Positions 12,427 through 60,038 of a stretch of 64,000 nt of DNA are shown here, piece by piece. Every line of letters begins with the position of its first letter. Positions within the stretch are counted from its first letter, which is position 1. The position numbers were made by a program, and so were the translations under genes. The notes under the pieces were generated by a model. The model was not told where the DNA came from. It was given only the letters and a program-made list of their open reading frames with translations, and made no database searches. Source of the stretch: Eukaryota sp. GEM-RC1 (lineage: Eukaryota); assembly GCA_040285855.1 (NCBI GenBank), contig JAUFOQ010000016.1, positions 930,001 through 994,000 on the forward strand, in the 5' to 3' direction.

Positions 12427-12901
12427 TTGACCATATTGAATTATTGCTATTTTTTGGAGAATTGCTTTTTGTATAACTATTGTGTATTTTCTACTTTTTT
12501 GATCATCAAGTTATTTCATGAATATAATATAATAATAATTTTGGTCCATTTTTCTTTTGTTGGGTTATACAACAATGTTCGAGAACATCTACAAGGTGGT
12601 TTTCCCGAAGACACGTGGTTTAGTTTTTTCCCTTCGATATATTATAATCTATGTTTCAATTTGTTTGGAACAACACCATGTCCTTTTAAGATCTGGTGTG
12701 CACTTTACAAAACTCATTAACATTCTAATTCCGTTTTGACTACAATCGACATTCTAAAATTTACTTGAATTACTTTGGACAAATATCTCCTGGAAATAAA
12801 AAATCAGTAATTGTCGATTAATTGAGAAATTGTGCAAGTTTGGTGTGAAGGTTAATGTTGAAGAACGTAATCTTTTACCGGGTGGTGATGAAGTCGTTTG
12901 G

Positions 12902-12980
12902 ATTTTATCTTAGTATTATTTGTTTGATTTTACACTTTCATAGTTTTGTAGGAAGGTGCCTTATTGGGTGCCGAATAAAG
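12902..12980 (+). repeat. Dispersed copy of the approximately 85-bp spacer of the 28-kb minisatellite element
   Basis: TTAGTATTATTTGTTTG...CATAGTTTTGTAG...CCTTATTGGGTGCCGAATAAA matches 28250-28320 and 28537-28607. Confidence 0.8.
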
Positions 12981-23282: not shown

Positions 23283-24066
23283 TCTTATACGTGTGACAAA
23301 ATGGCCAACATTTTCTTATACGTGTGACAACACAATTCTCTTTTTCTTATACGTGTGACAACTGTCAAGTCCATGAATCCCAACATCCTACATGTTACTC
23401 CATTCCCCAATAATCCACATCAACTTCTTTTTAATTCATTTGATGCTTGTTTCTCGTCATGGCAAACTTATGCTGCTGAACAAGGATTTGCCATCCGAAT
23501 TGAAGGTGGAACGGAAGAACGTGGGCGTTGTTATTTCACTTGTTATGCTTCCGGTAGTTATGTTCAGGAAGGAAATAATAAAAGACCCCGTAAAACAAGA
23601 AAAGCTCAATGTCCTTGGAAAGTATATGTAAAACGAACATCTGCAGGCCAATGACTCACATATCCCAGAGTAAATGGTCACTCTCACCAAATGTTGCAGG
23701 AGCCTTCGACACTTTTCCATCACCGTGTCGTATCCCCAACCCAGAAGAATATATTGGAGTGTCTAAATCCAACTTATCCAGTCAGAAGCGTACTTGCAGA
23801 TTTGAACAGGCTAGATGGTCCCACAAATCTCACACGCAAAGATGTATCGAATCACCGTCAAGCGGTCCGCAAAGAAATTATTGGTGAAGATTCCTGTATT
23901 GAGGGCGCTGCACGAGAATATGGGGATCGCTACTATATTCAGGTGAACGAAGACCCATTTTGTGTCTTAATCTCTTTTTTTATACCTATAAAGTCTATCT
24001 ATATCAGTTGTTTACATTGGTATCCATTTCTTTGATTTTGGAATTCAAATTCTGTCACACGTATAG
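23283..24066 (+). mobile_element. Internally deleted Mutator-like (MULE) element with a FAR1/WRKY-type DNA-binding domain fragment
   Basis: ORF 23355-23654 reads YAAEQGFAIRI...YFTC...RKTRKAQCPWKVYV and continues in 23691-24035. TATACGTGTGACA occurs three times at the left (about 23286-23361) and inverted once at the right (about 24053-24065). Confidence 0.65.
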
Positions 24067-25923: not shown

Positions 25924-26940
25924 CTAATAAGTAATTGCTTTCTTAGGACATCCATCGACACACCTCAAACACCCCATACACTCAGTGTTTCTCAACTTCA
26001 GAACCACCTTCCCATCATCTCTAGCCTTGCCTATCTGCTCACTAAGTAAAATTCCCATATCACAGTCAGCATCGCATTTGCGACAAGAAATACACTTGGT
26101 AGTATCAACAGTTAGCTTGTACATTGAAGTTTTCCCAATCAATGAATACATCGCTCCAAAGGGACAAACCCAACGACAGAAGGATCTGTTTCCAAGAAGA
26201 GGCATAATGAACAAAGAAAGAAAATACAAATCTGGAACAAAATGCCAATGGCGGGCCACAGCAGATGAAAACTCCTTGGAAAATAAAGGAACGTACATGA
26301 CAAAAATCATTAGAAACATATACATCATCACAAAGTACTTGATAAATCGGAGTCGATCCCATCCCTTACCTCTCTTAGTACTTCCTCTAAAAGCAAACCC
26401 AACTGTTTCCCTAGTAGAGACGCATGTACAGATCAAGCCACAGTCCAATCGTCTTCCAAAAACAATCATTAAAGAACCCCAAATCCAGAAGGTCAATGAC
26501 CCTGGGGAGTGAACCCGGGGTATCCAGCGTCCTTGTCAAGGAAGGGAAAGGGGACAGTGTAACCAAGGCTGGAGGCAATGATGGGGATGATTAGGTATAG
26601 GGATACTGTACCAAAAACAACAATGTACATTCTCATTAAATCAGAGCGGATGTTGGTGGAGTACAGTCGCCAGATTCCAAAAAAGAAACATCACTATTAC
26701 TTCAGTGAATGATGATAAAAGGAAAGTATCAATATGATACGAAGAGTCACGGAGATAGCTGTTGTTGATGTAGGCGGCACATATCCAGAATATTCCAATG
26801 TAGGAGAGGAAAACTACAAGCCGTTTGTTTTTGATCTTGTATCGAGATCTAGGTAATTTCTTTGACAACTTTCGGGACGGTGAATCATTGTTGTTGTTGA
26901 TTAAGAGATCATGTTCCATTGTCGTAGATTCCTTCTGCAT
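25924..26940 (-). CDS. Membrane 4Fe-4S-binding protein (NapH/MauN/YccM-like polyferredoxin; frameshifts near 26500-26660)
   Basis: TM helices, RSFCRWVCPFGA, CISCRKCDADC and CMGCLRCVDGCP. Confidence 0.8.
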
Positions 26941-28065: not shown

Positions 28066-28758
28066 TACAACATTTGTAACTACAACATTTGGTGATACAA
28101 CATTTGTAACTACAACATTTGGTGATACAACATTTGTAACTACAACATTTGTAACTACAACATTTGGTGATACAACATTTGTAACTACAACATTTGTAAC
28201 TACAACATTTGGTGATACAACATTTGTAACTACAACATTTGTATCTATTTTTAGTATTATTTGTTTGTTTTTACAATTTCATAGTTTGTAGAAAGGTTAC
28301 CTTATTGGGTGCCGAATAAACATCTCACATTTGTAACTACAACATTTGTAACTACAACATTTGGTGATACAACATTTGTAACTACAACATTTGGTGATAC
28401 AACATTTGTAACTACAAAATTTGTAACTACAACATTTGGTGATACAACATTTGTAACTACAACATTTGTAACTACAACATTTGGTGATACAACATTTGGT
28501 GATACAACATTTGTAACTACAACATTTGTATCTATTTTTAGTATTATTTGTTTGTTTTTACAATTTCATAGTTTGTAGAAAGGTTACCTTATTGGGTGCC
28601 GAATAAACATCTCACATTTGTAACTACAACATTTGTAACTACAACATTTGGTGATACAACATTTGTAACTACAACATTTGGTGATACAACATTTGTAACT
28701 ACAAAATTTGTAACTACAACATTTGGTGATACAACATTTGTAACTACAACATTTGTAA
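28066..28758. repeat. 15-bp minisatellite (TACAACATTTGTAAC / TACAACATTTGGTGA) in three blocks separated by two identical approximately 86-bp spacers; probable subterminal repeat arm of a DNA transposon
   Basis: Seen directly. Further copies occur at 59982-60038 (unit) and 12902-12980 (spacer). Confidence 0.9.
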
Positions 28759-29410: not shown

Positions 29411-31299
29411 TCAATTTAGGCAAAGTAGTGACTGTTGTTTTTTCAGTTTTGGCACAGGTTTGTTAAAAATTAAATCAGAATTGATGGCACTTACACTTTG
29501 ATTATTGAGACACTCATCGTCATCATTCACAACAAAATCATTCATACTAGACGACGCATCGTCATCATCATCAGTTTCATCATCTCCACTATCACTTCCA
29601 GAGACAACAACTTCATTATCGAATAATTCTAAAACTGAATCAGAAGTGTTATTCAAATTTTCAATTTTTGGAACATCCTTTTCCACCAAATCTTCCTCAA
29701 TTTCTTCATTGACTGGACCAAGAACATCAACAGTTTCTGTACTTTGACCAACACTAGAAATAATATTGGACGAAAATTCATCAAAAGTTTTCAACACAGA
29801 AGGCCAATTTCTAACAATTCTTTCATCTTCTAATGGCAAAGGATAAAGAGGTTTAGTAACCGGTCGACAGGGGTGAAAAGTGGAATAATACCACTGATAA
29901 AGATCAATTCTTGGTTTGGGAAATCTTGAAGAAATATCTAAAATTTTAATTGAGTTCCAGTTCTTCACCCTACTCAATGTAACGTACAATTGGGCATATT
30001 CCCAAAAATTTAATGAAACTTCAATTCCTTCAATTGTTAGACCCTGAGATCTATGGACTGTTATTGCCCAACAAGGACGAAGAGGATATTGCAATCGGGA
30101 TGCTATAATTACAGGCTTTTTCTTCTCATTCAACACCTCAATTTCAAATTTAGTCGGAATAATTTTGATTGGTTCTTCGTCCCTCCCGAATCTTACATTA
30201 ATGAAATGTGAAGTTTCTGAAAAATCAATAATTTTGCCTTTTGACCCATTTACTAGGCCCAGATCTGGTTTGTTTTGGGTAAACATTACCAAACCCCCGA
30301 CAACACAGTGAAATTTTTGTTCGGCAAAATCGTTTAGCCTACTTGATAATTTTTTTACATTTAAATCAACAGCCTTTTCCATTTGTTCCTCATTAGGCTT
30401 ACCAAATGCCCAACTTTTAACAATTTCTGATTTAATTAAGTTTTCATTGAACTTATCGAGGGAATGAAATTCAACATTTTCATTCCCTTGTTCACATAAT
30501 AATTCAAATTGCTTTAAATTTTCGTCGGCGACATCCTTGTTTCTAGCAAATAATTTGGTTGGACTTTCAATATTTTTGGCTAATGACTTATGTTTCAATA
30601 AAATATGTTTCATATAGTCATCAAAAAGTCCGAGACGTATTTCATTCAAAAAATTATAAAAATTGACATCACCTTGTTGTCGGATACTTCCAGATAATTC
30701 AATAAAATTTAAATTCAAGTCCTTCCAAGACTGTGATGAAAACGTAAAGTCTGAAAGTTGAAGAACAGTCCGTGTGTTTGAATCAGATTTTACAATTGGT
30801 GCAAGTTGCAAAAAATCACCAAATATTACAACTTGAAGTCCACCAAATGGTAACTGAGACTTCAGTAAATCTTTAAATATATCAGAGGCTCTGTTGAATA
30901 ATTCAGCAGTCAACATTGAAATTTCATCAATAACAAGCATTGAATTTCGAGCACTAATAGTTCGTAAAACAGACTTAACACTCGAAGGCATAGAGCGAAT
31001 GACATCAGATATTGGTTTTTCATTACGGATAAAATTATAACCAAAGAGAGAGTGTAGTGTTTGACCACCAAAGACAGTGGAAGCAACACCAGTAGTAGCA
31101 GTAAAAAGACATGGCCATTGGGTCTCATTAGCTTGGAACCCGCATTAGACCACCACTGTTTAAGACAGTACAGTAGGTAAGACTTGCCCGATCCGGCACC
31201 ACCAGTAATGAAGAAATTTCGACGCTTAGAAGGTCTTGCATGAGTAATAGCTTGGAAGACCTGAGCCTGTTCGTCTGTAAGTGTGTTGATAATGGACAT
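29411..31299 (-). CDS. PIF1-family SF1B DNA helicase (frameshifted near 31000-31130)
   Basis: GGAGSGKS, IDEISM, FGGLQVVIFGDFLQL, RQQGD, YPLRPCWAITVHRSQGLTI and QLYVTLSRV. Confidence 0.9.
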
Positions 31300-31756
31300 T
31301 GAGTGTGTGAAGTGGTGATGTTTAAGATGCAGATTGTGCAGGGAAACTTTCCTTTCACTATAATTTATATATCTACCTCCACTTTATGGAAAATGCTGGT
31401 CGTACATAATTCTTAGAAGCTTGTTCTATCATGATGAGCTTTCTATCGTCTCATATGTCAAATTATATGTCTATGTAAAACGTGATGTTGGTGTTGGGAT
31501 CGATCTTGATGAAATAGAGCAATGTATCGTGTCATTGGACTACTTTCGAGCACTCTAACTCATATCCGAGTCTTTTAAAGTCACGCCCTTGATCTTACAA
31601 ATCAAACATGAGATCTCTCTCCTAGCCCTCGTTGATGCCATTCTATCTGAAGACAAGGTACCTTCTGCTTCTGTTTCACTAAATCCAAGGTAATTCCTCC
31701 TCCTCCCTACACAGCTGATGTTCCTCGTAGAAGTAGAACACCCCGATTTGTGTTCT

Positions 31757-34430: not shown

Positions 34431-34520
34431 CGTCCACATCCGCCATTTCTCAATTCCGCCATCCAGATACTGTTTCCATTGCACGGTCACGGGATTTGGA
34501 TGGTGGGTTGAAGGAATGTG
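34431..34520 (+). ncRNA. Solo copy of the conserved stem-loop motif (type A)
   Basis: CCGCCATCCAGAT-ACTGT-TTCCATTGC-ACGGT-CACGGG-ATTTGGATGGTGG, homologous to the 141-bp unit. Confidence 0.55.
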
Positions 34521-35062
34521 TTGTTCCGTGGTTTTCTCTTTATCCACTTCTTCTGTGATGATGCTCCTTCAGTTATCTCCTCTGCTGAAAACACTGGATT
34601 TCTGACTGATTCTTGCTGAATGCCTCTTGCATTGTATGTTTCGTAGATCCGCTTAACGTTGCATTGAACCACTTGAAGATTGTCCTCTGAGAAGTATGGT
34701 TGTCTTGTGATTTGTCTTGGCCATACTGTATAACAACTTTCTTCGTTCCCTCCGTTTCATTTCTCTCTGCTCTTCTTCTCAAAGTCACAATGGGAACATC
34801 TTGAGCAATAGCTTGGTGGTATATCTTCGTTCCTCTGTACAATTCAGAAGCAGAGTAGATCAACAGATGTAAATGGTCTTTATGTCATATACATCACCTC
34901 TTCAAATCCTGCCACCCCCGCTTCTTTGGGAACAAAATTCGTTGGTGAAAAACAGAAAATGTGACTTTCAATATCAATTAAGTTGGGGCGATATCCAGAT
35001 CAATCACTGTCCTGTTAATAGACAGAATTTTGCATAAAGTAATAAGGCCTTTCATACTGGGA

Positions 35063-35867
35063 CTATCTAAACTCAACTGAGCCCGAAACCCTGCAATGGA
35101 GTCAGTCTCGAGTTGAGTTAGATAAGGATAGGGAGGCTGCATCATCAAAGCTACGGCAGTGGATGTTGAAAATCTACTGTTTATCCACAAGTGCAGTTGT
35201 ATTTGAGTTACAATAAGTTTTAATTACAACTGATTCAGTTCCAAAAACTTTCAAGGCTTGTTTCTATGAAGAGAAATTTTTTAGACGTAGACGCCTTACC
35301 CATTATTCAAGAAAAGAACGAAGTGAACAAAACTTGGTCCACAGATTTGCTCTCCAATATGGTGATCCAGATTTTCACATGAATCAAAAACTTGCCATTG
35401 GAACGTTGAATATAGACAACGACGTTGTCGAAACTCTTCATACAGAATGTTTTTGATTTAAACTTTTCGTTACTAAAAAATTGTTTTAGTATCTTCAAGT
35501 AAATCTGTAGTTCTCATCATGAAAAGAACCAGTCACAAGATAATTAATAAAGTTAAGGCTCATTGTTCTGGGCCATTTGTACTCAACCCAGCAACAGACT
35601 GATTAGTGAACAAATTTTTGAACACGTTTATGTTGGTAAGATTTCTTAGGTTTGTGGCAGCCGACACTTAAATTCTTAGTGTGGGAACTTTCTCAAAAAC
35701 TCAACCTTCAAGTGTATGATCGTACGAATAATCAATGGCGACTTCCACGAATTAAGTGTCAAGACCTGATTTTGCCTAACCCTTCTTCTCTTTCCAGTTT
35801 GACTAAAACAGTTAACGAGGCTCTTGCCATTCCTGTTAAAACTACTACTCCTTCAATTTCTACTTCA
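35063..35867. other. Mosaic of short scrambled fragments of the downstream helicase/Fanzor block
   Basis: Eight segments of about 21-108 nt match the 48.2-48.5, 43.3, 45.6, 45.7, 52.8, 44.5, 39.9 and 36.4 kb regions. Confidence 0.85.
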
Positions 35868-37888: not shown

Positions 37889-40800
37889 ATGACTTCTATT
37901 ATACTGCTAACACCCCTCGCCTCGTCCACATCCGCCATTGCTTCATCACATCACCCAAACACTGTTTCCATAGCACGGTCACGGGATATGGATGGTGGGT
38001 TGAAGAAATGTGTGAATACGTGCTTCCCGATGTCGTCTCCGCTTATTCTGTGCTCTATCCTCTCGTCCACATCCGCCATTGCTTCATCACGTCATCCAGA
38101 TACTGTTTCCATAGCACGGTCACGGGATTTGGATGGTGGGTTGAAGAAATGTGTGAATACGTGCTTCCCGATGTCGTCTCCGCTTATTCTGTGCTCTATC
38201 CTCTCGTCCACATCCGCCATTGCTTCATCACGTCATCCAGATACTGTTTCCTTAGCACGGTCACGGGATTTGGATGGTGGGTTGAAGAAATGTGTGAATA
38301 CGTGCTTCCCGATGTCGTCTCCGCTTATTCTGTGCTCTATCCTCTCGTCCACATCCGCCATTGCTTCATCACGTCATCCAGATACTGTTTCCATAGCACG
38401 GTCACGGGATTTGGATGGTGGGTTGAAGAAATGTGTGAATACGTGCTTCCCGATGTCGTCTCCGCTTATTCTGTGCTCTATCCTCTCGTCCACATCCGCC
38501 ATTGCTTCATCACGTCATCCAGATACTGTTTCCATAGCACGGTCACGGGATTTGGATGGTGGGTTGAAGAAATGTGTGAATACGTGCTTCCCGATGTCGT
38601 CTCCGCTTATTCTGTGCTCTATCCTCTCGTCCACATCCGCCATTGCTTCATCACGTCATCCAGATACTGTTTCCATAGCACGGTCACGGGATTTGGATGG
38701 TGGGTTGAAGAAATGTGTGAATACGTGCTTCCCGATGTCGTCTCCGCTTATTCTGTGCTCTATCCTCTCGTCCACATCCGCCATTGCTTCATCACATCAC
38801 CCAAACACTGTTTCCATAGCACGGTCACGGGATTTGGATGGTGGGTTGAAGAAATGTGTGAATACGTGCTTCCCGATGTCGTCTCCGCTTATTCTGTGCT
38901 CTATCCTCTCGTCCACATCATGGAAACGTGATCTCTCTATCGATGGAGACGTTGAGCAGAATCCAGGTCCCCATGATCGTTTACCATCCCCAGAAGTAAA
39001 GAGACCCAGAAGAACTTCTGTGTCACCATCGCCTCCTCCATCTCTGCCAGAAACGCTACCAGAAGAACTGCCAACACAAGAACCGCCAACACAAGAACTG
39101 CCAACAGAAGAAACTCTAACAGAAGAACCGCCAACAGAAGAAACTCAGCTAAAACAAAAGAAACATAATCAAAGAACTAAATACCACATGGGCATATTGC
39201 ATCGTTACTGCCGTATTCCACATGAAACTTTTGCCCATCCAGTGCTAAGATCTGGAAGAACACCTGGTTTCCAAGTTTGTTCATGTATGAATCATGTTTT
39301 TATAGATGAATCCGAAAACTTAACTGATCTCGCTCCAGATGTCATTCCCAATCCAGACAATGAATCACGACGCTCGTTCCTGGCCCAAATTATGCAAGAG
39401 TGTTGCAAACCTGGTGACACGCCAAGTAATTGGAGAATTGAAAATTACATCATGGCCAAACACTATGAATCGGAGTTGATTGAATGTCAACAAGATGCTA
39501 ATCATTACTTGCTCAGTTATGATGGAGCGTTGGAATCCCTCCATAAATATTGGTGTCAATTGTGTGACCCTAATCGAGAATCTACTGTGAGTTTACCGAT
39601 TATGCCTCTTGGATTCAAATATGAGATGCCTCCCCATTGTCCTCAAAAACAACCTTCTTTTCGTGAATCGTTTTGCCTTTTTATTGCTCCATGTCTCTTC
39701 TGCCTTCTTCCTGGTCACAGTTATAATGAATGTCCCTTCCAAACTTTTAGACTTAGTGATGTTTCATTAAGTATCACATCCTTGTATCAAAATATCAACC
39801 CTAAAGTTTTGGTACGTCCTGAGGTTATGCTGGACATTTTATTAACAATGCTCCATCTGCAATTTGTTGTGGAGGAGAAAAAACTCAACCTTCAAGTGTA
39901 TGATCGTACGAATAATCAATTTACTTTGGAAATGTACAAAGAAAACCAAAAAGTGATTGAAAAGTTTGCAAAGTCAAAAGCTACTTATAAACTCAAAATG
40001 TTAATCTTTGATATTGCTCATGTTATTGAATTAATTAAAAAAGAAGCCCCCAAAATACCTGATGTTGATGTCAAAGATTCTGATTTTGAACATACTGACG
40101 ATCCTACAGACGATCCTTTAAATGATGACGGATTTGATGATCTATATAATCAAACTTCTGTTAGTATTATGTGGGATGATTTTAATAATATCAGAGATTC
40201 GTCCTACACTTCTCAATTACTTTCAAGATTTTTTAACTTTTGTCATTTTCTCGAGCACTATACTTTTGTGGATACAGATGAAGAAAGCCGCATTGTCGAA
40301 ATTAAAGACCCTGAAACTAAACAAGTTGTACAACGGAAAGAAGTTTACCGACATCAGTTTACTGTATATCAAGATTTTTTCGAAAACAAAATTGAAACTA
40401 TGAGTATGCTCATGTTCCAACTGTCATTTTGTGCCCATTACCATTATGAACAAAAAAAAGAAAACAAAGATCTCTCTTTAATGTCTTTCTGTTTCCAGGC
40501 AATGGAATACTTAGTCTCATTGTCATGGTTGGCGTCAAATCATAGTGATTACAAGATGTTGTTAGATCATTATCTTCAATGGAGACGACCTCCCCGCTAT
40601 GTTTACAATTTCCCAAGCACTGTGACTTCACCAGAGGAACCAACGTGTACATTTACATCAATTGATTTTCCTAAAGTATGTTCTAAATTAGCACATTTGA
40701 AATCTTATGTCCGCGAAAGTGATTTACTAACACAAATTCTTCAAATTTTGACACTAAATGAACAGTGGAATAATACAGTTGACAGTAATGACGCCTACTT

Positions 40801-43800
40801 CCACTTGGTGTTTTCTTGCTTTCAGTTGATTTCAAAAGCACGTAACTGCCGTATTGCATTTGTTAATGAAGGAAAAGACACTTTTTATCAATTGTTTCGT
40901 GTTGTTGGTCAAAATCATGTCAAAGACAACAATATTATTCCGTTTATTGTTTCTGGTCAAACAGGTTCCGGGAAATCTGTCTTAACTGGTGTTGTTGTGG
41001 TTATGGTTACTTTGAAACCAATCATTGTGTGTCAACCTAGAGTTCTACCAGCCACAAAACTCTCCGATTTTATCAATGATTTATGTCATAGTGATTTTCC
41101 TCTGTCTGGATACCGAACAGGCAACAAGAATACGAACATTCCAGTACATTCACCAAGATTTATCGAAGTTCAAACCGCTGCCTTCACTTCTAAATTTCTG
41201 ACAAATAATAGCAATCTGTCTCGATTTGCAACTATCATGGTGGATGAAGTTCATGAAAGAAAATGTGACATTGACATTTTATTAGCACAAATGAGAATAA
41301 TTTCCCAAACTGATTCAAAATTGAGAGTGGTAATCTGTTCGGCAACTATGGACAAACCTAATCCTTGTTTTAATTACCTTACACAAGGAAATTATTTAGA
41401 TACCGAACCCTCCTATACTATCCATGCAGCTGGAAGAACCAATCCACTGATTGTCCTTGATGTGAATTTTGTTCGTCAAAATGAATTTCATTATAGTCCC
41501 TTAATATCAAAACTTGTGATAACTCCGATTTTTGAACCTACACTTCAACAGGTTTTCAACGATCATTTTATTGATATTTACACTTATTTTGTCTTCAATG
41601 TGAACTCATACTACGACTATTTCACTCAACACTGTAATCCTCTTTCATATAAAAGTATCAATTTCAGAGCGTTAGCCCGACTATGTCTCTGTTATTACTC
41701 CCTGTCTCAGAAACTTTTTCAGTTTGAACCAGAATGTACAGGATTTACTTTGCTCGTGTTTCTTCCTGGAAGTCCAGAAATTACAACTCTCAGTAATATT
41801 ATTGAGAATGAGTATGAGAGTCAGAAAAAAGTGGATCTGGTGGTCTATACATCCCAGCTTCTTCTGAGAAGCCAGGTGTGTATCCGTTGTATTCAAGTCT
41901 GGATTCAGTCCAACAAGATGCAGCTGTGGCTAAACCAGCGAAAAAACAATTTAAAATTGTCATTGCTACCAATATAGCAGAATCTTCCTTGACTATTGAT
42001 GGGGTCAAATTTGTCATTGACTGTGGTTTGTCAAAGCAAACTGATGCAGATGACCTTCTCGACACTCATCATTGCTCCATTGCTTCTTTGGACCAGCGCT
42101 CTGGTCGTGCTGGAAGAAATTCTCCTGGACTTTCGTTACGTCTTGTGCAGACAAACTTATATCCGAATGGAACTTCGAGATTGCATTTCGACGAACCAGA
42201 AATTCTAAATTGTTCGTTGATTGAGCCATTGTTAACAATCAAACAGATCGCTGAAAATCCTCAATTTTTAATCAGTAATCGTCCAAATCCCCCTGAATTT
42301 TTTATCAGTCAACTGCCTGATGTTCCTTCTAGCGAGAACATCATGTCTTCGGTTGATGTTCTTTTCCGCACTAATGTTCTTTCAAAAAACCAACTAAATT
42401 CTCCCCTTACTTATCTCGGAAAGATTTGCACCAATGCCAATATTTCATTCTACAACTTCAAGTTTTTATTTTTCTGTTTAACAAACAATTACCTGTGTCC
42501 TGGATTGATTCGTCTTGCGGGTATCAATTCTATGTCGTTCATTCGTTGCTCTCGTACAACTTTTATGTCATTTTACGATTTGTATACCTTTTCACAATCG
42601 ATTCCTTTACTCAAACAACTCTCTACTATTGAAGAATCTAAAGTTGTACGTTCAGACATGTTTTTCAAATTATCCTTGGTTCATTACATTTTATGTGGCG
42701 AATTTATTAAAAATCTGGATATTGTCCCAACACGTGATCAAACCCTTAATGATCAAGCCCTTAAGAATTTATCTAAATTAGTTTTTTTGGAAAAAACTAG
42801 AGCGATATTTAAATGAACTAAGATCTTTAGTTTCACGTTTCGTGGATATGGAAGATTCTAATACTCATCTCAAAAATCAATTAATATCATTGGAAGGCAT
42901 TGCTCTAAAACTTGTCAATTTCATATCAAATCCTTCTGAAGTTACACTCAATAAGTTTCGAAATGAATCAACAATCTTCTCTTCTCTTTTTGAATCTCCA
43001 AATTAAACGACGTCTCTCTTTCAAGCCATTGTGGCTTCTTATCCCAATAAGTCATTCCATTCAACTGTAGTAGACAATTCATTCTCAGTTAGGTTGAAGT
43101 TGGAAGGTTATGTCAATGGAAAAAATTTAACAGCTTTATAAAGAAATTGTTTGATGAACAAAAAATTGTCAAATCTTCCAAATCTCTAAAAGTTAATGAC
43201 AGTGATGATGACAGTACTCGTTCAGAGACATTATGTTCAAAAGTTAAAATTACTTCAGATCTAGCTCCAGGTGAAACCGAAAGCACTGTTGTTATGTTGC
43301 ATTCAGAGAATACAACTGAAATTGAAAATCTACTGTTTGTCAACAAGTGCCGTGGAACTCTTTATTCATTAAAAAATTTTTCTCTTACGTTCCATCTTGA
43401 TTGGTATAGATTCATTATCAAATCACGATTCAATTTATCAATGGCATTGAAAGTTGTCAATGACCCAGAATTTTGGAACATGTACAACCAATTGTTACAG
43501 TGGGGTAATATCGTACATTTGCATATACCAAGAAATTCTATTAAATTAACTTTCGACATTATGTCAAGTCCTTGTAGTGATTTGACTCAATACACTCGTA
43601 TTGATAATGAGTGGTCCAAGGAAGTTAAATGTGCCAAATCACTGTTCCCTGTACCTACAGATCTAGGTTATCATAATGGTATTTCTGTTGGTGATAAGTT
43701 TCCACAATTCTTGTCTCATATTCCTTCTTCTTTTCAATACTTGTTCATCGTATGGCTCATGAACTTCAATATCAATTTGGTTTCGGAAATGGCAAAGCCA

Positions 43801-46534: not shown

Positions 46535-48012
46535 TCATTCTTCGTTTTCCTGTTTTTTCCCTAAAACTTCATTTTCGTCTTTTGTCTTTAACGATTTGTT
46601 TTCAAATTTTGTTCTTGAACAATCAATTACATTTTGTTCTGTCACCAAGTCAGGTTGTACACTCTGAAGTAGATCATACATAACAAGACATAGATTTTTT
46701 CTTGATCTGTTAGTGTATAATTTTGTCTGATTTTGTTCCTGACGTGCATCAACCATTAATCCTTGTAAAATTAAAGTAACATTCAAACAGACAATCCATC
46801 CACAGATAAGAGACGATGTTGACTGTGCAAAAGGTATATAGTAGTCCACCTTATACTCTGGTAATCTTGCAAACAGATTTGTTTCCCCACATCCATAAAC
46901 AGTTCTAAAAGGATTAACGATTAATTCAGTGGTTAATGAATAATCCAAAGAATCATAAATATTGAATAGTAAAACATTTGCTTCATTTAGAAACAATTCA
47001 ATAAGAATCCAATGACCAGATCCTGCATCACCAGGAACATGTTCTTTCACCAAACATAATGGGGCAAGAATTCTTTTCCTGATTTTAGTGTATCGACAAT
47101 AGCCTTACCAGAATGTAAGGCATAGCATATTGGATCACCAACCAACTGTTGAGTTTCTTGAGATTGCAGGAACTTGTACCTACTTGATTTAAATTTTTGG
47201 AATGCAAGCATCACAATGAAATCAAGTTCAGAACTCAACAAGAGTTGTGTTTTACCTTCCCTATCATCCTTTGTCAACATTTTTTCAATATCACAAAATC
47301 CAGATTTTAATTTTGAATTTATGTAAAACTGATCACTGATTAAATCTACAGAAAGAATCAACGGGTTACGTTGTTTTTTGCGTTTCATAGGTTTAGATAA
47401 ATTAGCATTATCAATGACCGGAACAGGAACTATTTCAGATGGTTCAGAGAAAATAGAATGAATATGATTGATTGCGAAGTTATCAATACGACGTTTTGGT
47501 GAAGGAAAAACGACTTGAGATGGAGTATCGTTAATGCGAGTATTGTCACAAGCATGTAAAAGAGTAGGAGACTGAGGCTGAGGAGGAGGAGGGGAACGAG
47601 CAATTGTAACTCGTTTAACGTCTTTGAGTAGATCCTTAAGATGATTTAGAGTTGAAGTTGTTGATTGAAGTGGAAGAGATATGTCACGCTTCTCATAAGA
47701 ACCATCAAAAGGAAAGAGATGAACAGTTTCTAGATCAACATCTAGCACAATGGCAACGGCTGCTTTGTAGTTGAGGCAAAAATCCATGGTACCCTTTTTA
47801 AGATCATCTGGTAAGTCAGATGTTGACACTTCCGTTATGTGGATGGATTTAGTTCTCCATGAATTGTATGTTCCATAAGGAAGAAGAACAAGTGACAAAT
47901 TAACTGCATGCTTATCAGCAAGCTTTACAACAAGTTTCATATATGTTTTGATGGTACGGGAACGACTTTCTTGTTCAGAAGTATTTCTGAGTTTGAAAAT
48001 TGAGTAGGACAT
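46535..48012 (-). CDS. Ulp1/C48-like SUMO/Ubl protease (frameshift near 47055)
   Basis: GHWILIEL...YDSL...QSTSSLICGWIV gives the H-D-Q-C catalytic order. Confidence 0.65.
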
Positions 48013-48159
48013 GGGAAATTCTGGTATAGACTTTATTACAGATTTCGTTTTTTAACACGTGAATTCCCACACACATGTCCATTACAGTCTGTGTGGGATT
48101 TCATTTTCCTTCCTCCTACAGTATAAATGTCGTTTGTTCTGCATCCAAACAGATGTTGT

Positions 48160-48535
48160 CCGCCATTCTGTCCTTATCTGACTCAACTTGTGACTGTTTC
48201 CATTGCACGGTTTCGGGCTCAGTTGAGTTTAGATAAGGACAGTTCTTTCCCTCCACTGCCTCCGCTTCTGTTGCTTCTCCCTCTACTGCCGTTGCTTTCC
48301 CCACTTCTGTTGCTTCGATAATGCCGCCATTCTGTCCTTATCTGACTCAACTTGTGACTGTTTCCATTGCACGGTTTCGGGCTCAGTTGAGTTTAGATAA
48401 GGACAGTTCTTTCCCTCCACTGCCTCCGCTTCTGTTGCTTCGATAATGCCGCCATTCTGTCCTTATCTGACTCAACTTGTGACTGACTCCATTGCACGGT
48501 TTCGGGCTCAGTTGAGTTTAGAAAAGGACAGTTCA
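48160..48535 (+). repeat. Three tandem copies of stem-loop motif type B
   Basis: Copies at 48160, 48324 and 48449: CTGTCCTTATCTGACTCAACT ... ACTG(TT/AC)TCCATTGCACGGTTTCGGG ... AGTTGAGTTTAGATAAGGACAG. Confidence 0.92.
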
Positions 48536-49756
48536 TTCTGTGTTTTATCAACACATACATTTATTGCCATGAAGTACTCGTCTCCCCTGTTTATCCCTTC
48601 CCATCCTCCGTTCCCAAAAGACCTCACCGCTGATGGTGATATTGAATCCAATCCAGGACCCGTAACTCAAGAAGCCATAAACTCAGTTTATCCTAATCAA
48701 TGGGTTGATGACGAAGCGATAGTGGAGTACTGTAAAGTGATATTTCAAGAAGCAGGGTTAGACTTTGAAAGCATGTTTATCCATCCGACCACATGGCTTC
48801 AATACATTGTTTCACCAGATGTCCCGCTAGATCAATGGTTGTTGACGAAAATTGAGAAAAATCAAATCACAAACTCCAAATATCTCTTTGTTCCCCTTAG
48901 TGATACCATGACTAGAAATACTAATTATTCCAGAGAAGGTGTCACTGGTTCTCATTGGGGTTTAGCCATTATAGACTGTTGTGAAAAGGAATGGATCTTC
49001 ATTGATCCAATGTTAACTACCGTCGATATGAGTAAGTCTATGGTAAAATCAGCTGTAGACATATTATCCGAAGTACTTGTGCCATGGGGGTATGTTTTCC
49101 GTTATGTACCTGTGACTAAAAGTCAGTCTGCTAACGACTGTGGAGTTTATGTCATTGCGTATATTCAAAAATATGTTGAACTTTTTAAAAGACTCATGTA
49201 TGTTCCGTCTCTGATGTATATGGAGTCTGATTTGGTCCAAGTGAACATTGAACTTCAAGCAGACATATTTCGTGAAGAAATTCTGGAGGTCTTGTCTCAA
49301 CAAAGGACACTTTATCTACAACAACGTCAAACCACAGTAGCTCCTATTGTACCATCGTTACCCATTCAACCTCCTGCCGGTAAAGAACATCCAACCACTT
49401 CAATTCCTCTCACAGGTTCACGTCTTGCTAGTACTAAAACATCTACTGGTTTAAGCACTAAAAAAAGGAAAGCCAAAATTTCAGATGTTCCATCACCACG
49501 AGGTTCACCTTTAATTCAACGAAATAAATTTAGAACTACCAGCTCCCTTGTTTCAACTGGTGACACTCCAATACGAAAGACCCACCGCCGTATGTCCACA
49601 TTGGAATCATCGGAATTACCACAATCTGAACTATCATCACCATCTGAACTATCATCACCATCTGAACTACCACCATCTGAACTACCACCAAAATCACAGG
49701 CCTCCATTATGTCGTATCCATCGCCAATTCAAGAAGAAATCCAAAAATGGAAGTAA
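48446..49756 (+). CDS. 2A followed by a Ulp1/SENP (C48) protease domain and a Ser/Pro-rich linker
   Basis: WVDDEAIVEY, LFVPL, SHWGL, IDPM and QSANDCGVYV. Confidence 0.85.
   Translation: MPPFCPYLTQLVTDSIARFRAQLSLEKDSSFCVLSTHTFIAMKYSSPLFIPSHPPFPKDLTADGDIESNPGPVTQEAINSVYPNQWVDDEAIVEYCKVIFQEAGLDFESMFIHPTTWLQYIVSPDVPLDQWLLTKIEKNQITNSKYLFVPLSDTMTRNTNYSREGVTGSHWGLAIIDCCEKEWIFIDPMLTTVDMSKSMVKSAVDILSEVLVPWGYVFRYVPVTKSQSANDCGVYVIAYIQKYVELFKRLMYVPSLMYMESDLVQVNIELQADIFREEILEVLSQQRTLYLQQRQTTVAPIVPSLPIQPPAGKEHPTTSIPLTGSRLASTKTSTGLSTKKRKAKISDVPSPRGSPLIQRNKFRTTSSLVSTGDTPIRKTHRRMSTLESSELPQSELSSPSELSSPSELPPSELPPKSQASIMSYPSPIQEEIQKWK
48620..48661 (+). other. 2A/StopGo peptide DLTADGDIESNPG|P
   Basis: Exact D(V/I)ExNPGP consensus. 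Confidence 0.9.
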
Positions 49757-50751
49757 ATCTACACACTGAGCCTATAGAAGAAGAAATACAAATTCAAGAC
49801 TTTCTTAAATCCCCTTTACTTTGGAACAATCTGCCAACTTTTTGTTTAATTCATGTTCAAAGTGATTTTGCCAGTTCAGAAAGAATTAATGGCAAAAATG
49901 TTCAACTTGTTCAAGATGATGATGACATTGAAACTGTTGAAGGTGAAGCTGAAGATCAATTAGAAGTTAAACGTGATTCTTCTGTTGATCCGATTGTATC
50001 AATTTCCATCCAGATCATTGATCACAATGAATTCAATGAAAAGCATTTATTTTCTCATGGTAATTTTGATACTACAAACTTGGATTTGTGTACTTTACAT
50101 ATTTCAGATAGTGAATCCAGTATGCTTAAAAACTTCATTTCCTTCATTACTCAACATTGTCCGCGATTGTTTGTGAGTTATGACTTTCACTTAGATACAT
50201 TTCCCTTTCTTGTATCACGTTGTCAAGTCCTCAAAATCAATACAACGTTTACTTTTCCAGAATTTAAACCCTATATTCCCTTTTGGTTCAACAAATGGTG
50301 TAAGGAAACAACTTTTGGTCCGTTTTTTAGTCTCGATTTGAATGCTGTATTGAAGAATTTTTATGTCTTTACTGGTGGCCGTTTTTTGGAAAATGTTGTT
50401 CAAATTTTTCTTGAAATGAATAATTTTTCTAAAAATGAAACTGTCAAACGCTTGGAAGAACTTGATCATGACTCTGATCCTGATGAAGTTCAATTGGTCA
50501 ATGATGTCCAAAACTTGCATGGCATAATTGACAGTATTAATGTTTTAGTTCCAGACAATCCCAAAGTGAAGGTCGATAAGATTAAAAAGAAATTTGTAAA
50601 AAATTTGGAGAAAGTAAATGAACTTTGGGCCAAGGAATCGACAAGACCGCTATTGTTGATGAACTCAATTCAACAATTACCTCTGATTGAATACTTATTG
50701 GCTGACCTATTGGATCCCAAAAACAAACATTACGTTCAAAGTCACCAATGA
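49747..50751 (+). CDS. Degenerate family-B DNA polymerase 3'-5' exonuclease-like domain
   Basis: SESSMLKNFISFITQHCPRLFVSYDFHLDTFPFLVSRCQVL and LDLNAVLK...LENVVQIFL resemble PolB Exo II and downstream motifs. Catalytic residues appear altered. Confidence 0.5.
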   Translation: MEVNLHTEPIEEEIQIQDFLKSPLLWNNLPTFCLIHVQSDFASSERINGKNVQLVQDDDDIETVEGEAEDQLEVKRDSSVDPIVSISIQIIDHNEFNEKHLFSHGNFDTTNLDLCTLHISDSESSMLKNFISFITQHCPRLFVSYDFHLDTFPFLVSRCQVLKINTTFTFPEFKPYIPFWFNKWCKETTFGPFFSLDLNAVLKNFYVFTGGRFLENVVQIFLEMNNFSKNETVKRLEELDHDSDPDEVQLVNDVQNLHGIIDSINVLVPDNPKVKVDKIKKKFVKNLEKVNELWAKESTRPLLLMNSIQQLPLIEYLLADLLDPKNKHYVQSHQ

Positions 50752-53630
50752 AAGTGGTTAAGAAACGACTAGACAATGTTGTGTCCAAAGCGAAGGTTAA
50801 ATTTATTGAATCTCGTGTTAAGAGAGCTCACCAAGTAAGAGTCCGTAGTACTCTCTTTTTGAAACATTTTTTTGTTCATAATTTTCACCATTCTGGTATT
50901 TTAGGTTACATTCAGAAGTTACTGCCTGCTGCTGTTCCAAATGTAACTGTTAAGGAAGAAATGAATTCTGATACAGATGAGTCAACTGACGAAGAAACAG
51001 ATGTACATTCAGAGTCTATCGATGCTGTTACTCCTCCTATTAAATTAGAAAATATTGAAGATGCGAGTGATGAACCTAAACCTGAACCTGACCTTTGGAC
51101 TAAAATTCAAACTGCCAAAATTGAATTGCCAGACTGGAAGAATTTTTTTACGTTGAAATCAATGGAACAAGTGTTGTCTATGATGACGATTAGGGACAAC
51201 AAACTTGTAAACAATCAGAATCATATTGAGACTGTACAAAAATCGTTAACAAACATAATTTCTAACACAAATGATGGCTCAACTCAAAATCAGTTTGCTC
51301 AACACTTATTGTTTCATTACATTCCTCGTTTAGAACTAGCTGCTGATTCCGTTGGACTTGATAGGATTGTGTTTCCCAGTAGCCATCGTTTATCTCCTAT
51401 ATTGCATTACATGGCTACAGAAATTATTACAAATTACAAGAAAAACATGAGTGAACACTTTCACGAATATGTTTTTCAAGTATTTAATTTGGTTACCCTG
51501 AAAAAGAAAGACTTAACAAGCGTACTGATAAGAATCAACGACAAGAGTTGTGTACAAAGCTTAATGAAGTCAGACAGTTGATCATTAATGGGGAAATTTC
51601 AAAAATTAATTTTCAAGATGTTGAAGTGTTTCCTGATCCCAATTCTAGACTGAGTTTACTATTTTTTAACTATTTGTTTACTTTTTTTGAAGGTAAAATG
51701 GAAAAAACAATCTATTATGCAGAAAAAGTAGATCCTTTGAAATTCTTAAGTCATGCAGTGTATTTGAAACGTCTTGTTGAGGACTCTTGTACTGGAGTTA
51801 CTGCCAACAATCCTTTTCCTCTGACAAAATCATTGATTCCTAATCATATCAGATTGGATACTACATGGTTTAAAAAAGTTTATGCATCAGAAATTAAAGG
51901 TAGCTTTGATGACGTTCGAAAAGATATTTGGCACTCAGTTTTGAAACCAAAGTTTCTTCCAAAGTCATTGTCTCATGACTTCAAATACAGTTCTATTTCT
52001 ACAGATGGAGTTAGCTGTAGTTTAATGATGATGCGGAAAGATCTGCTTGATGGGAGAGGAAATCCTCATAAGAAGGTGAAAGCTGTTGACTACACAGCTA
52101 CTGAAAGGTACATTGATTCTTTGAGTTCCACAGAAATTCAAAACTTAAATTTGAAATCAAAAGAATTGTTGCTATTGATCCTAATCAGCATGATTTGATG
52201 TATTGTGCTTCTTTAAAATCTAAGGAGGAAAAGAAAATCGAAGGTTTCGATACATCAGCCAATCTCAGAAGAAGAAAGATTTGTCCAAAATCGTCAAAGA
52301 AAAAAGGAAGCTTGAAAAAATTAAAAAAGGAATTGAAGGATTGGAAAGACGCACCTACTATTGACAAACCATCAACTGTCAAGTTGAAAAATCGAGACAA
52401 TTGGAAAGTATTCAGATACACTGCTGGGGAACGCAATGCCGATATTAAAAAGTCTCCATGGAAAAGAAAAAAACAAGTAAGGAAAGAAAAAGAGCTAAGA
52501 GGAAGAAGAGGAAGCTGGAGAAGAAAATAAGACGATACAATCTCCACCGTTTATCTGAATCCGAACGGTTACAACAATATTCTACTCAATTTATTCACAT
52601 TCCAGATGGCAGACGCATTGACATAAATGGGCAACAAATTTTAGATCAATGGGGCTCTAACTCGCCAGGTAGTAAATCTTGTGAATTGACTCAGTATTCT
52701 GCTTTTGTTCTTGGTAAAGAAATTGCCTGCTCTTTACTACGATCACCCACTACTGATCAAAAAACTACTGAAGGAATTTACGAAGAAAAGTGGTTTAGAC
52801 GGAATCGTCTCACACAGTATTCAAGAAAGGAACGAAGTGAGAAAAACATGCTTCACAGATTTGCTCTCCAGTTTGGAAACCCAGATGAAGTCGTTGTTGG
52901 GTATGGAGACTGGAACGACACTACTTTTCGTCGAAGAAGAGGTAAAGCATCTACTGTAAAAGGTGCTTCAATTCGGAAATTATTGAGAAAATTTGGATTT
53001 AAAGTGTTCCTAGTTGATGAATTTAAGACCAGCAAATGTTGCTCTGCATGTGTTTCCAGAAACGACGAAGGTATCTGTTCCAATCCTGAAAGGATAAAAG
53101 TCACTGATCCTCATTGGAAGAAGAAGTTACAGAAGGAAGAGAAAAGAATTAAAAAAGGAAATTATGGAACACAATCAATTAGACAATATTGTGGAGCGTA
53201 ACTTTGATGATGAATGGACCAAACAGTTGACATTATCGAAAGAAAGATTGAAGAGCAAAAAGTCTCACCATGGGGCTTAGTTGAATGTGCCAAATGTCAT
53301 GTCCTCTGGAATAGAGACTTCAATTCTGCTATCAATATTTACAATATTGTAAATGGAACCATTCAAGGTCAAGGTAGACCTGCCATCCTCGAGAGACCAA
53401 AATCTCAAACAACACCTGTCGTGGATGGCGGGAATACAGATCAGATTCCTAAGAAAAAGACTGTGAGTAAGGGTAAGGGTAAAGCAAAGCGTCCTCTAAC
53501 AAAAGTCAGAGGTCCTAACAAGTGTGGTATATGTTTTCAACCTGGACATAACAGAGCAACTTGTCCAAATAAGCCTAAGAAAGATGTACCCAAGGACTCA
53601 CATGTAAACCAGAAAGATCAGGAATCTTGA
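50748..53630 (+). CDS. Fanzor: Fanzor (eukaryotic TnpB-like RNA-guided RuvC nuclease, Fanzor1-like) with a C-terminal zinc knuckle; several indels at A-runs
   Basis: ISTDGVSCSL; RuvC-I VAIDPN (D at 52177); VVVGYGDW; RuvC-II LVDEFKTSKCCSAC (E at 53019); CAKC..WNRDFNSAINI (D at 53316); CGICFQPGHNRATC. Confidence 0.9.
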
Positions 53631-53635
53631 ATCTA

Positions 53636-53770
53636 TGAAGTTAGCTCGTCTTAAAAGACTTTGCGAATGAGGACTTTGTCAACTGTGGTTTATCTCATGA
53701 AAATGTGAAGGGTTATGCCCTTATGCATTTGGAATGAAATTCACAGTAGGGTTGATAATTGAATCACTTG
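53636..53770 (+). ncRNA. Putative Fanzor omegaRNA scaffold plus 3' guide
   Basis: Immediately 3' of the stop: hairpin GTCT-TAAA-AGAC, then a long stem ACTGTGG.../...TCACAGT enclosing AATGT-G-AAGGGT-TAT-GCCCTT-AT-GCATT. Confidence 0.6.
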
Positions 53771-53809
53771 CAACTGTTAATTTATCAGTGAAGAGCGCAT
53801 CAACATGTT

Positions 53810-55416
53810 ATGTCTACTACCGTATCAGCTCCTTCCCAGCGTACCCGTCTTGCACTGAACCTATTTGATGCATACATCACCTCCTTCCAATCGAATATTC
53901 CTTCTGTCAAAACCATCCCTTTCTGGAAATCTGTTATTAGAACTGTTGACGGCCGTTTTATCTATAGATCTTCTCTTCCTCCCAATGGTCCTATTCCCTA
54001 CATTGAGTTGTCTCTACTGACTTCCCACCTCACCCCTCCCTTACTAAGATCTACTTCTTCTAATCCATCTGCTTCATTTTTTCTTGTTACCCACCCTTAT
54101 GGTATCTCAAACCCTTTACCTCTCTCTGATACTGATTCTTTGAAATGTGCTCTTGCTCAATTAGACAATTCCCTGCAATCCATCTATTTCAACTCAATTT
54201 CTCCCCTTGTTTACCAACCTTCTCCTCAGATTATCCCTTCTACTCCTTCTCCAAGCTATCTCTCCCCCGTACTTCCTCCAGATCATCCTTTCCCCCACAG
54301 ATACGGTCTCCTGCTCGTCCACAATCTGCTTCCAATGTCACTAAGCCAGTTCAGCGAACCCCCAGACCCCAAACAACTAGACCGCAAACTGCTAGACCCA
54401 TGACTAGGAGTGGACGGTCTTTGATCAGTATATTGGAACAAATATTTGAAATAGATTATTTTACTGATAATTTAAAAATTGAAGAGGTAGTCTTGTGCAG
54501 GGAGAGTTTTGAAGATTATGAACGAATTACGATTCCATTTCTTGCCTCTTCACATATGCATAAAAGGTCAAAAGGATGGATTAATGACCTTTCTATCCAT
54601 TTCAGTCAATCAACTTCAATCATATTACGTGACGGTCGAATGATTCGATTGATTGATGAGGATGATTGTTCAATCACACTTTCCGCTTTCAGACCAACTC
54701 GATTAGGAGATCACCTTGACGACGTGGAAGATGTGACTTTTCTTGAAAACGACGTGATTTATGACCTTCAGTTACTTCCACATTCTGACCAAGTTGAAAT
54801 CGTTACCTTTTCTAAACGTCTTGATCTACTGTCACTTAGAGATGTGTCATCGCCAGCAGATGCTCATCATTTGGGACTTTTGTTGGACACAAGTACACAT
54901 GCACTGCAGCATTATTTAAATATTTCAAATTCTGAAATTTCCACATTTATTTGCTATCCACCCAGATTTCATCATTTATGTAGTAGAAGTATCGTCAGAA
55001 CTAATTTCATGGATTATTTAGAAAATCTAGAAGAGCCTATTTGTGTTGATCAAATGCCATCATCTTTTGGTGCACTTTTGTTCAAGTCACACGTACTTTC
55101 TTGTCTTTCCACTTCCTTTTCTTACTTTGTTGCCCACACTTTCTTTTTCTATACCGGTCTATCTAGTTGTTGGGCAACTCTGTTAAAGGATGACCAAGAA
55201 GAAGAATGTTTCAGTTACTCTAATTCGTCATCAATCAATTCTGATAGCCAATCATTTAACACCCAATCTCTTCTTCTTGCAACTCCTTTGCTTTCTTCAC
55301 CTGCTCCACAGCCCAAACCAGTTGATTCATCCCCAAGAACTCATCAGATTGCTCCTTCTTTATCCAGGATCAACAGACTAAGTTCTAGAAGGAGACCACA
55401 GAGTGCTTTTCGATGA
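53810..55416 (+). CDS. Protein with a divergent DcpS (scavenger decapping, HIT-like) domain; frameshift near 54280
   Basis: ESFEDYERITIPF...WINDL, LLSLRDV and ICYPPRFHHLC resemble DcpS motifs, but the His triad is degenerate. Confidence 0.45.
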
Positions 55417-59981: not shown

Positions 59982-60038
59982 ATTTGTAACTACAACATTT
60001 GTAATGACAACATTTGTAACTACAACATTTGTAACTAT
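59982..60038. repeat. Short copy of the 15-bp ACAACATTTGTAACT minisatellite
   Basis: About four units identical or near-identical to those at 28066-28758. Confidence 0.85.

Follow-up and report, generated by a model that had tools for sequence, protein, structure and literature searches.

Mobile-element genes of the metamonad Skoliomonas carry an exchangeable, in-frame array of repeats at the 5′ end, and a conserved 2A (StopGo) motif at the end of this leader probably releases the enzymes downstream, the cargo, with a fixed proline N-terminus. The anatomy of these genes, their in-frame reading in relatives, the variation in copy number, the swapping of leaders and cargos, and the conservation of the last 17 leader residues are observed directly.

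The window analyzed here is the whole 64-kb stretch of a contig from Eukaryota sp. GEM-RC1, which is a Skoliomonas (PMC11316075). It is gene-dense eukaryotic sequence with tubulins and a CPSF73-like gene. Mobile-element-like genes are clustered at about 29-54 kb and encode PIF1, UCH, a DEAH helicase, a Ulp1 protease, a PolB exonuclease and a TnpB-type zinc finger. The evidence from beyond the window consists of predicted proteins of relatives, and such gene predictions display in-frame leaders only. The set comprises 146 proteins from two Skoliomonas species, gathered by homology, by a profile of the 2A region (the best 120 of 275 matches entered) and by cluster look-ups, and it is a collection of relatives rather than a genome census. 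One member, P0035, is 99.7% identical to the ORF of the window and may not be an independent relative. The homologues of the ORF at 48446 are all named Eukaryota sp. GEM-RC1 (12 of 12).

The repeat leader at 48 kb

The gene at 48 kb comprises a leader, a 2A motif and a long cargo.

48059..48104, + strand: extra hairpin upstream of the first ATG (z -4.1; 0 of 200 shuffles as stable)
48127..48321, + strand: start ATG of the leader, with repeat unit 1 (hairpin 48168-48242; compared with the in-frame form, a base is missing near 48250)
48321..48446, + strand: repeat unit 2 with its own ATG (hairpin 48332-48406; one base short near 48414)
48446..48610, + strand: repeat unit 3 and a unique tether (hairpin 48457-48531), in frame with 2A and cargo
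48611..48661, + strand: 2A/StopGo motif FPKDLTADGDIESNPG/P, DLTxDG class (motif scan, conservation profile)
48659..49756, + strand: cargo part 1, predicted Ulp1/C48 protease domain and low-complexity linker (PF02902, E 1.9e-6; His and Cys motifs present)
49747..50751, + strand: cargo part 2, predicted PolB-type 3'-5' exonuclease domain (PF03104, E 2.4e-8), continuous with the frame of part 1 in 20 of the 22 relatives that cover the site
50748..53630, + strand: cargo part 3, Fanzor1 in pieces (TDG, DPN, DEFKTS and NRD motifs, zinc fingers), broken at A-runs

A preliminary description of this DNA had noted three type-B hairpins ahead of DLTADGDIESNPGP, and these are indeed present, with copies at 48160, 48324 and 48449 and spacings of 164 and 125 nt. 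The two copies that were folded, 1 and 3, form long stems (z -6.4 and -4.8; none of 200 shuffles equally stable), and copy 2 is identical in sequence to copy 1. The hairpin at 48059-48104 is a fourth one, different from the three, and its loop resembles the tip of the unit. The reading MKYSSPLF...DLTADGDIESNPGP starts at the ATG at 48569. Divergent from the leader, a minus-strand gene runs from 48012 down to 46535 and is split near 47050. The second half of this gene contains GHW and CG, motifs reminiscent of Ulp1 proteases, with no Pfam match, and its one relative is P0226 (92%).

As the spacings are not multiples of three, the amplified unit had been described as something other than a peptide repeat. 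This is contradicted by the translations: every type-B unit encodes one and the same peptide, and in 7 of 13 type-B relatives two to three units, each of 42-58 aa, are read in frame. The spacings of 164 and 125 are therefore 165 and 126 minus one base. P0014, P0015, P0016, P0190 and P0191 have the same N-terminus as the 48127 leader and continue in frame, and P0006 contains an in-frame 42-aa version of repeat unit 2. The other six type-B proteins start, as gene predictions, at the last unit. In a literal reading of the window, units 1 and 2 are short ORFs, each with a TAA that overlaps the next ATG.

The window gene has nine frame breaks, located by eye from the translations. Seven coincide with A-runs of 4-7 and the other two with TTTCCC junctions. 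A single base is lost at eight of them, and the remaining one is +1 or -2. Six of the seven A-run breaks are at runs of at least 5, against a background of 14%. At the 49745 site 20 of 22 relatives stay in frame, as do 15 of 17 at the 50722 site, and there are relatives broken at other runs that are intact in the window copy. Loss of bases from homopolymers in repeats is a known weakness of assemblies that combine Nanopore and Illumina data. The assembly of the named relatives is of this kind, Nanopore corrected with Illumina (PMC11316075). The breaks in the window appear to be one-base losses rather than a feature of the design; an assembly error and slippage in an element copy that is dead account for them equally well. 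The break at 51500 is shifted in all four proteins that span the site, one of which is the window's own, and is read through in none. This result does not fit so simple an account: the break (51490-51510) may reflect a systematic error or a fixed mutation, or mark a genuine site of frameshifting.

The 2A motif

The motifs within MKYSSPLF...DLTADGDIESNPGP and, at 38.9 kb, MSSPLI...DLSIDGDVEQNPGP had been described as a pair, and they are the only two 2A-like motifs in the six frames of the window, where 4e-5 such octamers are expected by chance. Both have the core D(V/I)ExNPGP, flanked on either side by coding sequence in the same frame, and the upstream motif DLTxDG with an aromatic residue three residues ahead of it (W at 38.9 kb, F at 48.6 kb). 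SSPL, which had been regarded as a shared element of the leaders, is incidental, being located within 45 aa of the 2A motif in just 21 of 88 relatives.

The pattern GDx[EH]xNPGx is found near the N-terminus of 88 of the 146 Skoliomonas proteins, as canonical D[VI]ExNPGP in 78 and as DVHKNPGP in 8; many of the 58 proteins without it are fragments that start downstream, as was observed for some. Among 27 distinct 2A 20-mers, six positions are invariant and 24 have F or W at -17. Upstream of -18 the commonest residue reaches just 15-36%, and conservation is limited to the last 17 residues. Both motifs in the window are likely to function as 2A because the DLTxDG class is active in vitro and the upstream aromatic is kept in most variants, a parallel to the conserved Trp. 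In reticulocyte lysate, StopGo was nearly complete with a tested member of the class (almost 100%; PMC12846837). In class B peptides, which have a different register, a change of W to F lowered activity about 2.3-fold, and the 14-mer DLTADGDIESNPGP appears once, as class A entry A10495, a predicted 2A of unclassified origin (PMC12338488). 2A motifs also occur elsewhere (P0120, P0151, P0108, P0129, P0156, P0092, P0103). These proteins combine UCH with DUF6570 or Macro, are Dam-like, or are tyrosine recombinases from Mesostigma, which hints at 2A use in other mobile elements.

The cargo is a protease-exonuclease-Fanzor1 polyprotein

By its sequence, the cargo that starts at 48.66 kb is the first part of a single long protein, made up of a Ulp1/SENP-like protease, a PolB-type exonuclease and Fanzor1; Fanzors are RNA-guided nucleases. 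In P0020, P0022, P0190 and P0193 one frame runs from the leader through 2A, Ulp1 and the exonuclease into the beginning of the 50748 ORF. A cluster in Eukaryota sp. TZLM3-RCL has 23 members, and 8 of the 15 that are listed are intact ORFs of 1498-1583 aa. These contain leader, 2A, Ulp1 and a complete Fanzor, are 95-97% identical and have the RuvC D-E-D residues. The best solved matches of the TZLM3-RCL protein are PpFz1 from Parasitella (9cf0, E 1e-22) and SpuFz1 from Spizellomyces (8gkh, E 1e-15), that of its protease part is SENP8, and the Fanzor piece of the window matches the same two Fanzors. Its split RuvC D-E-D, zinc finger, TDG motif and closest solved matches place the predicted nuclease with Fanzor1. 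A second Fanzor family of this species (P0096, P0148, P0176-P0178), 24% identical to the first, comprises 2A, exonuclease and Fanzor with no protease; it has the DVHKNPGP variant, and N replaces the third RuvC Asp. The stretch at 53560-53810, where a structured omega-RNA would be expected at the 3' end, folds with z -0.9.

A second array and the shared hairpin tip

A related array precedes a different gene at 38.9 kb, and two solo hairpins are found nearby.

37889..38920, + strand: type-A leader, ATG and 7 in-frame 141-nt units with the type-B hairpin tip
38921..38971, + strand: second 2A motif WKRDLSIDGDVEQNPG/P (motif scan)
38969..42816, + strand: second cargo, Cys-rich region and DEAH-box helicase, multi-copy in relatives
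34431..34533, + strand: solo type-A hairpin, no 2A (core at 34470)
35064..35163, - strand: solo type-B hairpin, no 2A (core at 35105), bordering a mosaic of element fragments

The proposal that the leader design is reused on an unrelated gene is borne out. A 25-nt hairpin tip is common to the type-A and type-B arrays (92%, E 0.001), and the cargos behind the two 2A motifs are unrelated (best E 3.2). The 17-nt hairpin core has 11 matches in the window and none in 100 shuffles. Across eight copies, 3 of 9 named tip pairs are changed on both sides between types A and B, and 92% of alignment cells are paired versus 22-50% in slid controls, figures that come from few independent sequences and from a structure itself derived from their folds. 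Folding is weak in the outermost type-A units, the first (z -1.2) and the last (z -2.5). A second reading frame is open throughout the type-A array (38008-38931). The expected succession of core motif and 2A is seen in both arrays, 140-155 nt past the last core, and breaks down at both solo copies (34470 + and 35105 -). Outside Skoliomonas, the core pattern had two matches in viral contigs, of which L001 has no hairpin context and looks like chance, and no match in metagenomes; P0144 had no related loci in metagenomes and P0020 none in viral contigs.

The loop ATTGCAC resembles the U1A-binding heptamer and the tRNA-Ala anticodon loop. The loop of the seven type-A units differs from the U1A-binding heptamer, and no tRNA was found in the window. 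An origin of the leaders from Pol III B-boxes is unsupported: a strict pattern, picked post hoc, occurs in 3 of 14 leaders versus 0.66 expected, and a loose one in 4 versus 4.1. An Rfam scan to E 10 returned nothing relevant and no ribozyme family, and an HDV-like fold was rejected, a custom descriptor giving one anchor, the same as in shuffles.

The 38.9-kb gene is a separate multi-copy DEAH element with a 14-member cluster, and its Cys-rich region had no usable Atlas match. A composite of type-A and Fanzor-type genes was considered (median locus-tag distance 25 versus 58, P 0.03; 1 of 15 within 10 tags); the two are probably not one element because their locus tags are just loosely clustered. 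Pfam identified no transposase family among 29 window ORFs, and neither reverse transcriptase nor APE was found among window ORFs or examined relatives. A search for terminal inverted repeats and target duplications gave chance-level matches only.

Gap-free mosaics of 32-108 nt fragments occupy 35064-35454, 35695-35736 and 35780-35867. Their sources, out of order, are the type-B hairpin, three distant parts of the DEAH-element region and the Fanzor gene. The mosaic looks like templated insertion or template switching, and a process of this kind may be what swaps leaders. Elsewhere in the window, arrays of 15-nt units with a shared flank (28066-28758, 59982-60037, 12897-12979) adjoin the PIF1 helicase gene (29411-31383, minus strand) and are probably another repeat family. 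A FAR1-like transposon remnant is located at 23373-24035 and a gene for a 4Fe-4S dicluster protein at 25924-26469.

Exchangeable leaders among relatives

The 88 proteins with 2A have about 15 types of leader, mostly unrelated to one another (sorted into 15 types by diagnostic words, with four proteins outside any type). Near-perfect tandem units of 23-76 aa are present in 11 of 14 leader representatives, and a Met within the unit is likewise found in 11 of 14. Unit number ranges from 1 to 7 per leader, and some leaders of the second species have little or no repeat. The cargo start LSKDSLE is found with five leader types, and one leader type is found on four cargo starts. In composition the leaders are rich in Ser and Cys and poor in acidic residues, and a hydrophobic stretch (Kyte-Doolittle >1.4) precedes 2A in 12 of 16. 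These properties are expected of translated non-coding DNA, and would be harmful to a nuclear enzyme if retained.

The hairpin had been taken as a constant part of the design. Its core, as distinct from hairpins of other sequence, can be encoded by only 2 of the 14 leader types tested, A and B. The constant part is therefore 2A and not this hairpin. What survives of the earlier proposal is a portable leader of variable length that 2A would separate from its cargo, upheld by the range of types, the copy-number variation, the swaps and the conservation of 2A only; SSPL and the non-peptide repeat do not belong to it.

Mechanism and alternatives

By analogy with mouse L1 monomers and L1Tc Pr77, the repeats may be retained for a role as nucleic acid, either as an internal promoter or as RNA structure. 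Translation would begin at an ATG within one of the units or upstream of it. StopGo would then drop the repeat-encoded peptide, and the cargo would always begin with the same Pro. Because the peptide would be discarded, the leader would be free to expand, shrink or be replaced while the enzyme stays unchanged. We consider this explanation somewhat more likely than not. The F of the 48.6-kb motif, in place of the W of related motifs, counts against it, and so do the restriction of the hairpin core to two leader types, the type-B predictions that start at the last unit, the shared break at 51500, the leaders of the second species with little or no repeat, and the negative searches for transposase, reverse transcriptase, terminal repeats and target duplications. 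A broader proposal is offered tentatively, as one possibility that we find less likely than its opposite: a new group of protist mobile elements with Fanzor1 as sole nuclease and a virus-style self-processing polyprotein that has its own deSUMO/deNEDD-like protease and exonuclease. In such elements 2A would uncouple the 5′ array, and promoters or RNA leaders would be swapped between unrelated elements, possibly via the templated repair that spreads the elements.

Alternatively, 2A could mainly cut the output of a dangerous nuclease by stopping ribosomes, with the repeats as a neutral by-product of slippage. Such attenuation has been proposed for the N-terminal 2A of non-LTR ORF2 (PMC3894237; PMC3708506), most tested retrotransposon 2A-like peptides lowered protein abundance (10.64898/2026.06.17.732966), and the RuvC triad of the cargo is intact. 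It leaves unexplained the in-frame arrays, the swapping of some 15 leaders and the structured tip common to two unrelated genes, and the DLTxDG class is very efficient in vitro. We consider attenuation rather unlikely as the main role, and it is compatible with release of the cargo from an exchangeable leader. It is quite improbable that the leader peptide is itself functional, for example as a signal sequence for dual targeting upon incomplete skipping: there are zero conserved residues upstream of -18, the hydrophobic stretch that most leaders have before 2A is often 100-300 residues from the start, and the cargo is a predicted nuclear enzyme, even though a precedent exists (PMC4981915).

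Two further readings are improbable. Taken literally, the window would have type-B units as separate short ORFs, stop-start coupled via TAATG. Both junctions have the TAA/ATG overlap, which just 22 of 311 ORF ends in the window share, and the solo type-B copy has TGATG at the corresponding place. In the -1 frame, on the other hand, TAATG reads as Ile-Met (ATA ATG), the seven in-frame relatives read through and none has the shifted peptide, seven further breaks at A-runs lie within the same gene, and the type-A array is in frame; we give such coupling little credence. Still smaller is the chance that the 2A motif has lost its activity and is a relic, with the arrays as minisatellites in decay. 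The nine breaks and the weak folds of the outermost type-A units would suit decay, but the 2A positions are invariant across two species and across cargos that are 24% identical, and intact recent copies exist in the second species.

Comparison with known systems

N-terminal 2A is known in single-ORF non-LTR retrotransposons (PMC3708506, PMC3894237, PMC5814959). As in the L1Tc type of these, the Skoliomonas mobile-element genes have a single long ORF in which 2A terminates a short N-terminal piece, and their 5′ end is structured. They differ from the L1Tc/ingi type in that no APE, reverse transcriptase or HDV-like ribozyme was found; their predicted cargo is protease-exonuclease-Fanzor1 or a DEAH helicase, and many types of variable tandem array serve as the leader. 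The 5′ monomer arrays of mouse L1 were swapped repeatedly and exchanged between families (PMC3600994; 10.1101/2021.12.03.471143). Variable-number tandem 5′ units replaced by unrelated ones are common to both, here at the protein level. Whereas L1 monomers are untranslated promoters, Skoliomonas units lie inside the ORF and would be removed by 2A.

Fanzor1 with varied N-termini is known across many transposon families (PMC3627910, PMC10530073, PMC10711439). The Skoliomonas proteins share with it the TDG motif, RuvC D-E-D, the zinc finger and multiple copies. Upstream in the same ORF they additionally have a Ulp1/SENP8-like protease and a PolB-type exonuclease, behind the leader and 2A; DPN replaces DPG in one family, and no transposase or terminal repeats were identified. 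StopGo motif 4 (DLTxDG, PMC12846837) and A10495 (PMC12338488) have the same core octamer and upstream hexamer; in the present case these sit on metamonad Fanzor and helicase genes instead of RNA viruses or retroelements.

A literature search at the level of titles and listings, covering few subscription papers, did not turn up any account of Fanzor polyproteins headed by 2A, or of repeat leaders that are both translated and exchangeable. Neither Fanzor nor Skoliomonas figures in the main texts of the recent 2A surveys examined (for PMC12846837 this applies to Fanzor only). The survey supplements covered, including that of PMC12338488, have no GEM-RC1 or TZLM3 entry. The parts are known, and the combination of repeat leader, 2A and Fanzor polyprotein appears to be new.

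If this reading is correct, natural use of 2A would extend from RNA viruses and retroelements to Fanzor elements without reverse transcriptase. The annotated N-terminal repeats of these proteins would not be domains, and such Fanzors would have a defined Pro N-terminus along with natural protease and exonuclease partners, which would bear on how Fanzor elements spread and evade silencing. The 2A papers leave open why mobile elements have 2A at the N-terminus; on this reading, one reason would be that the 5′ regulatory sequence could evolve while the enzyme is untouched.
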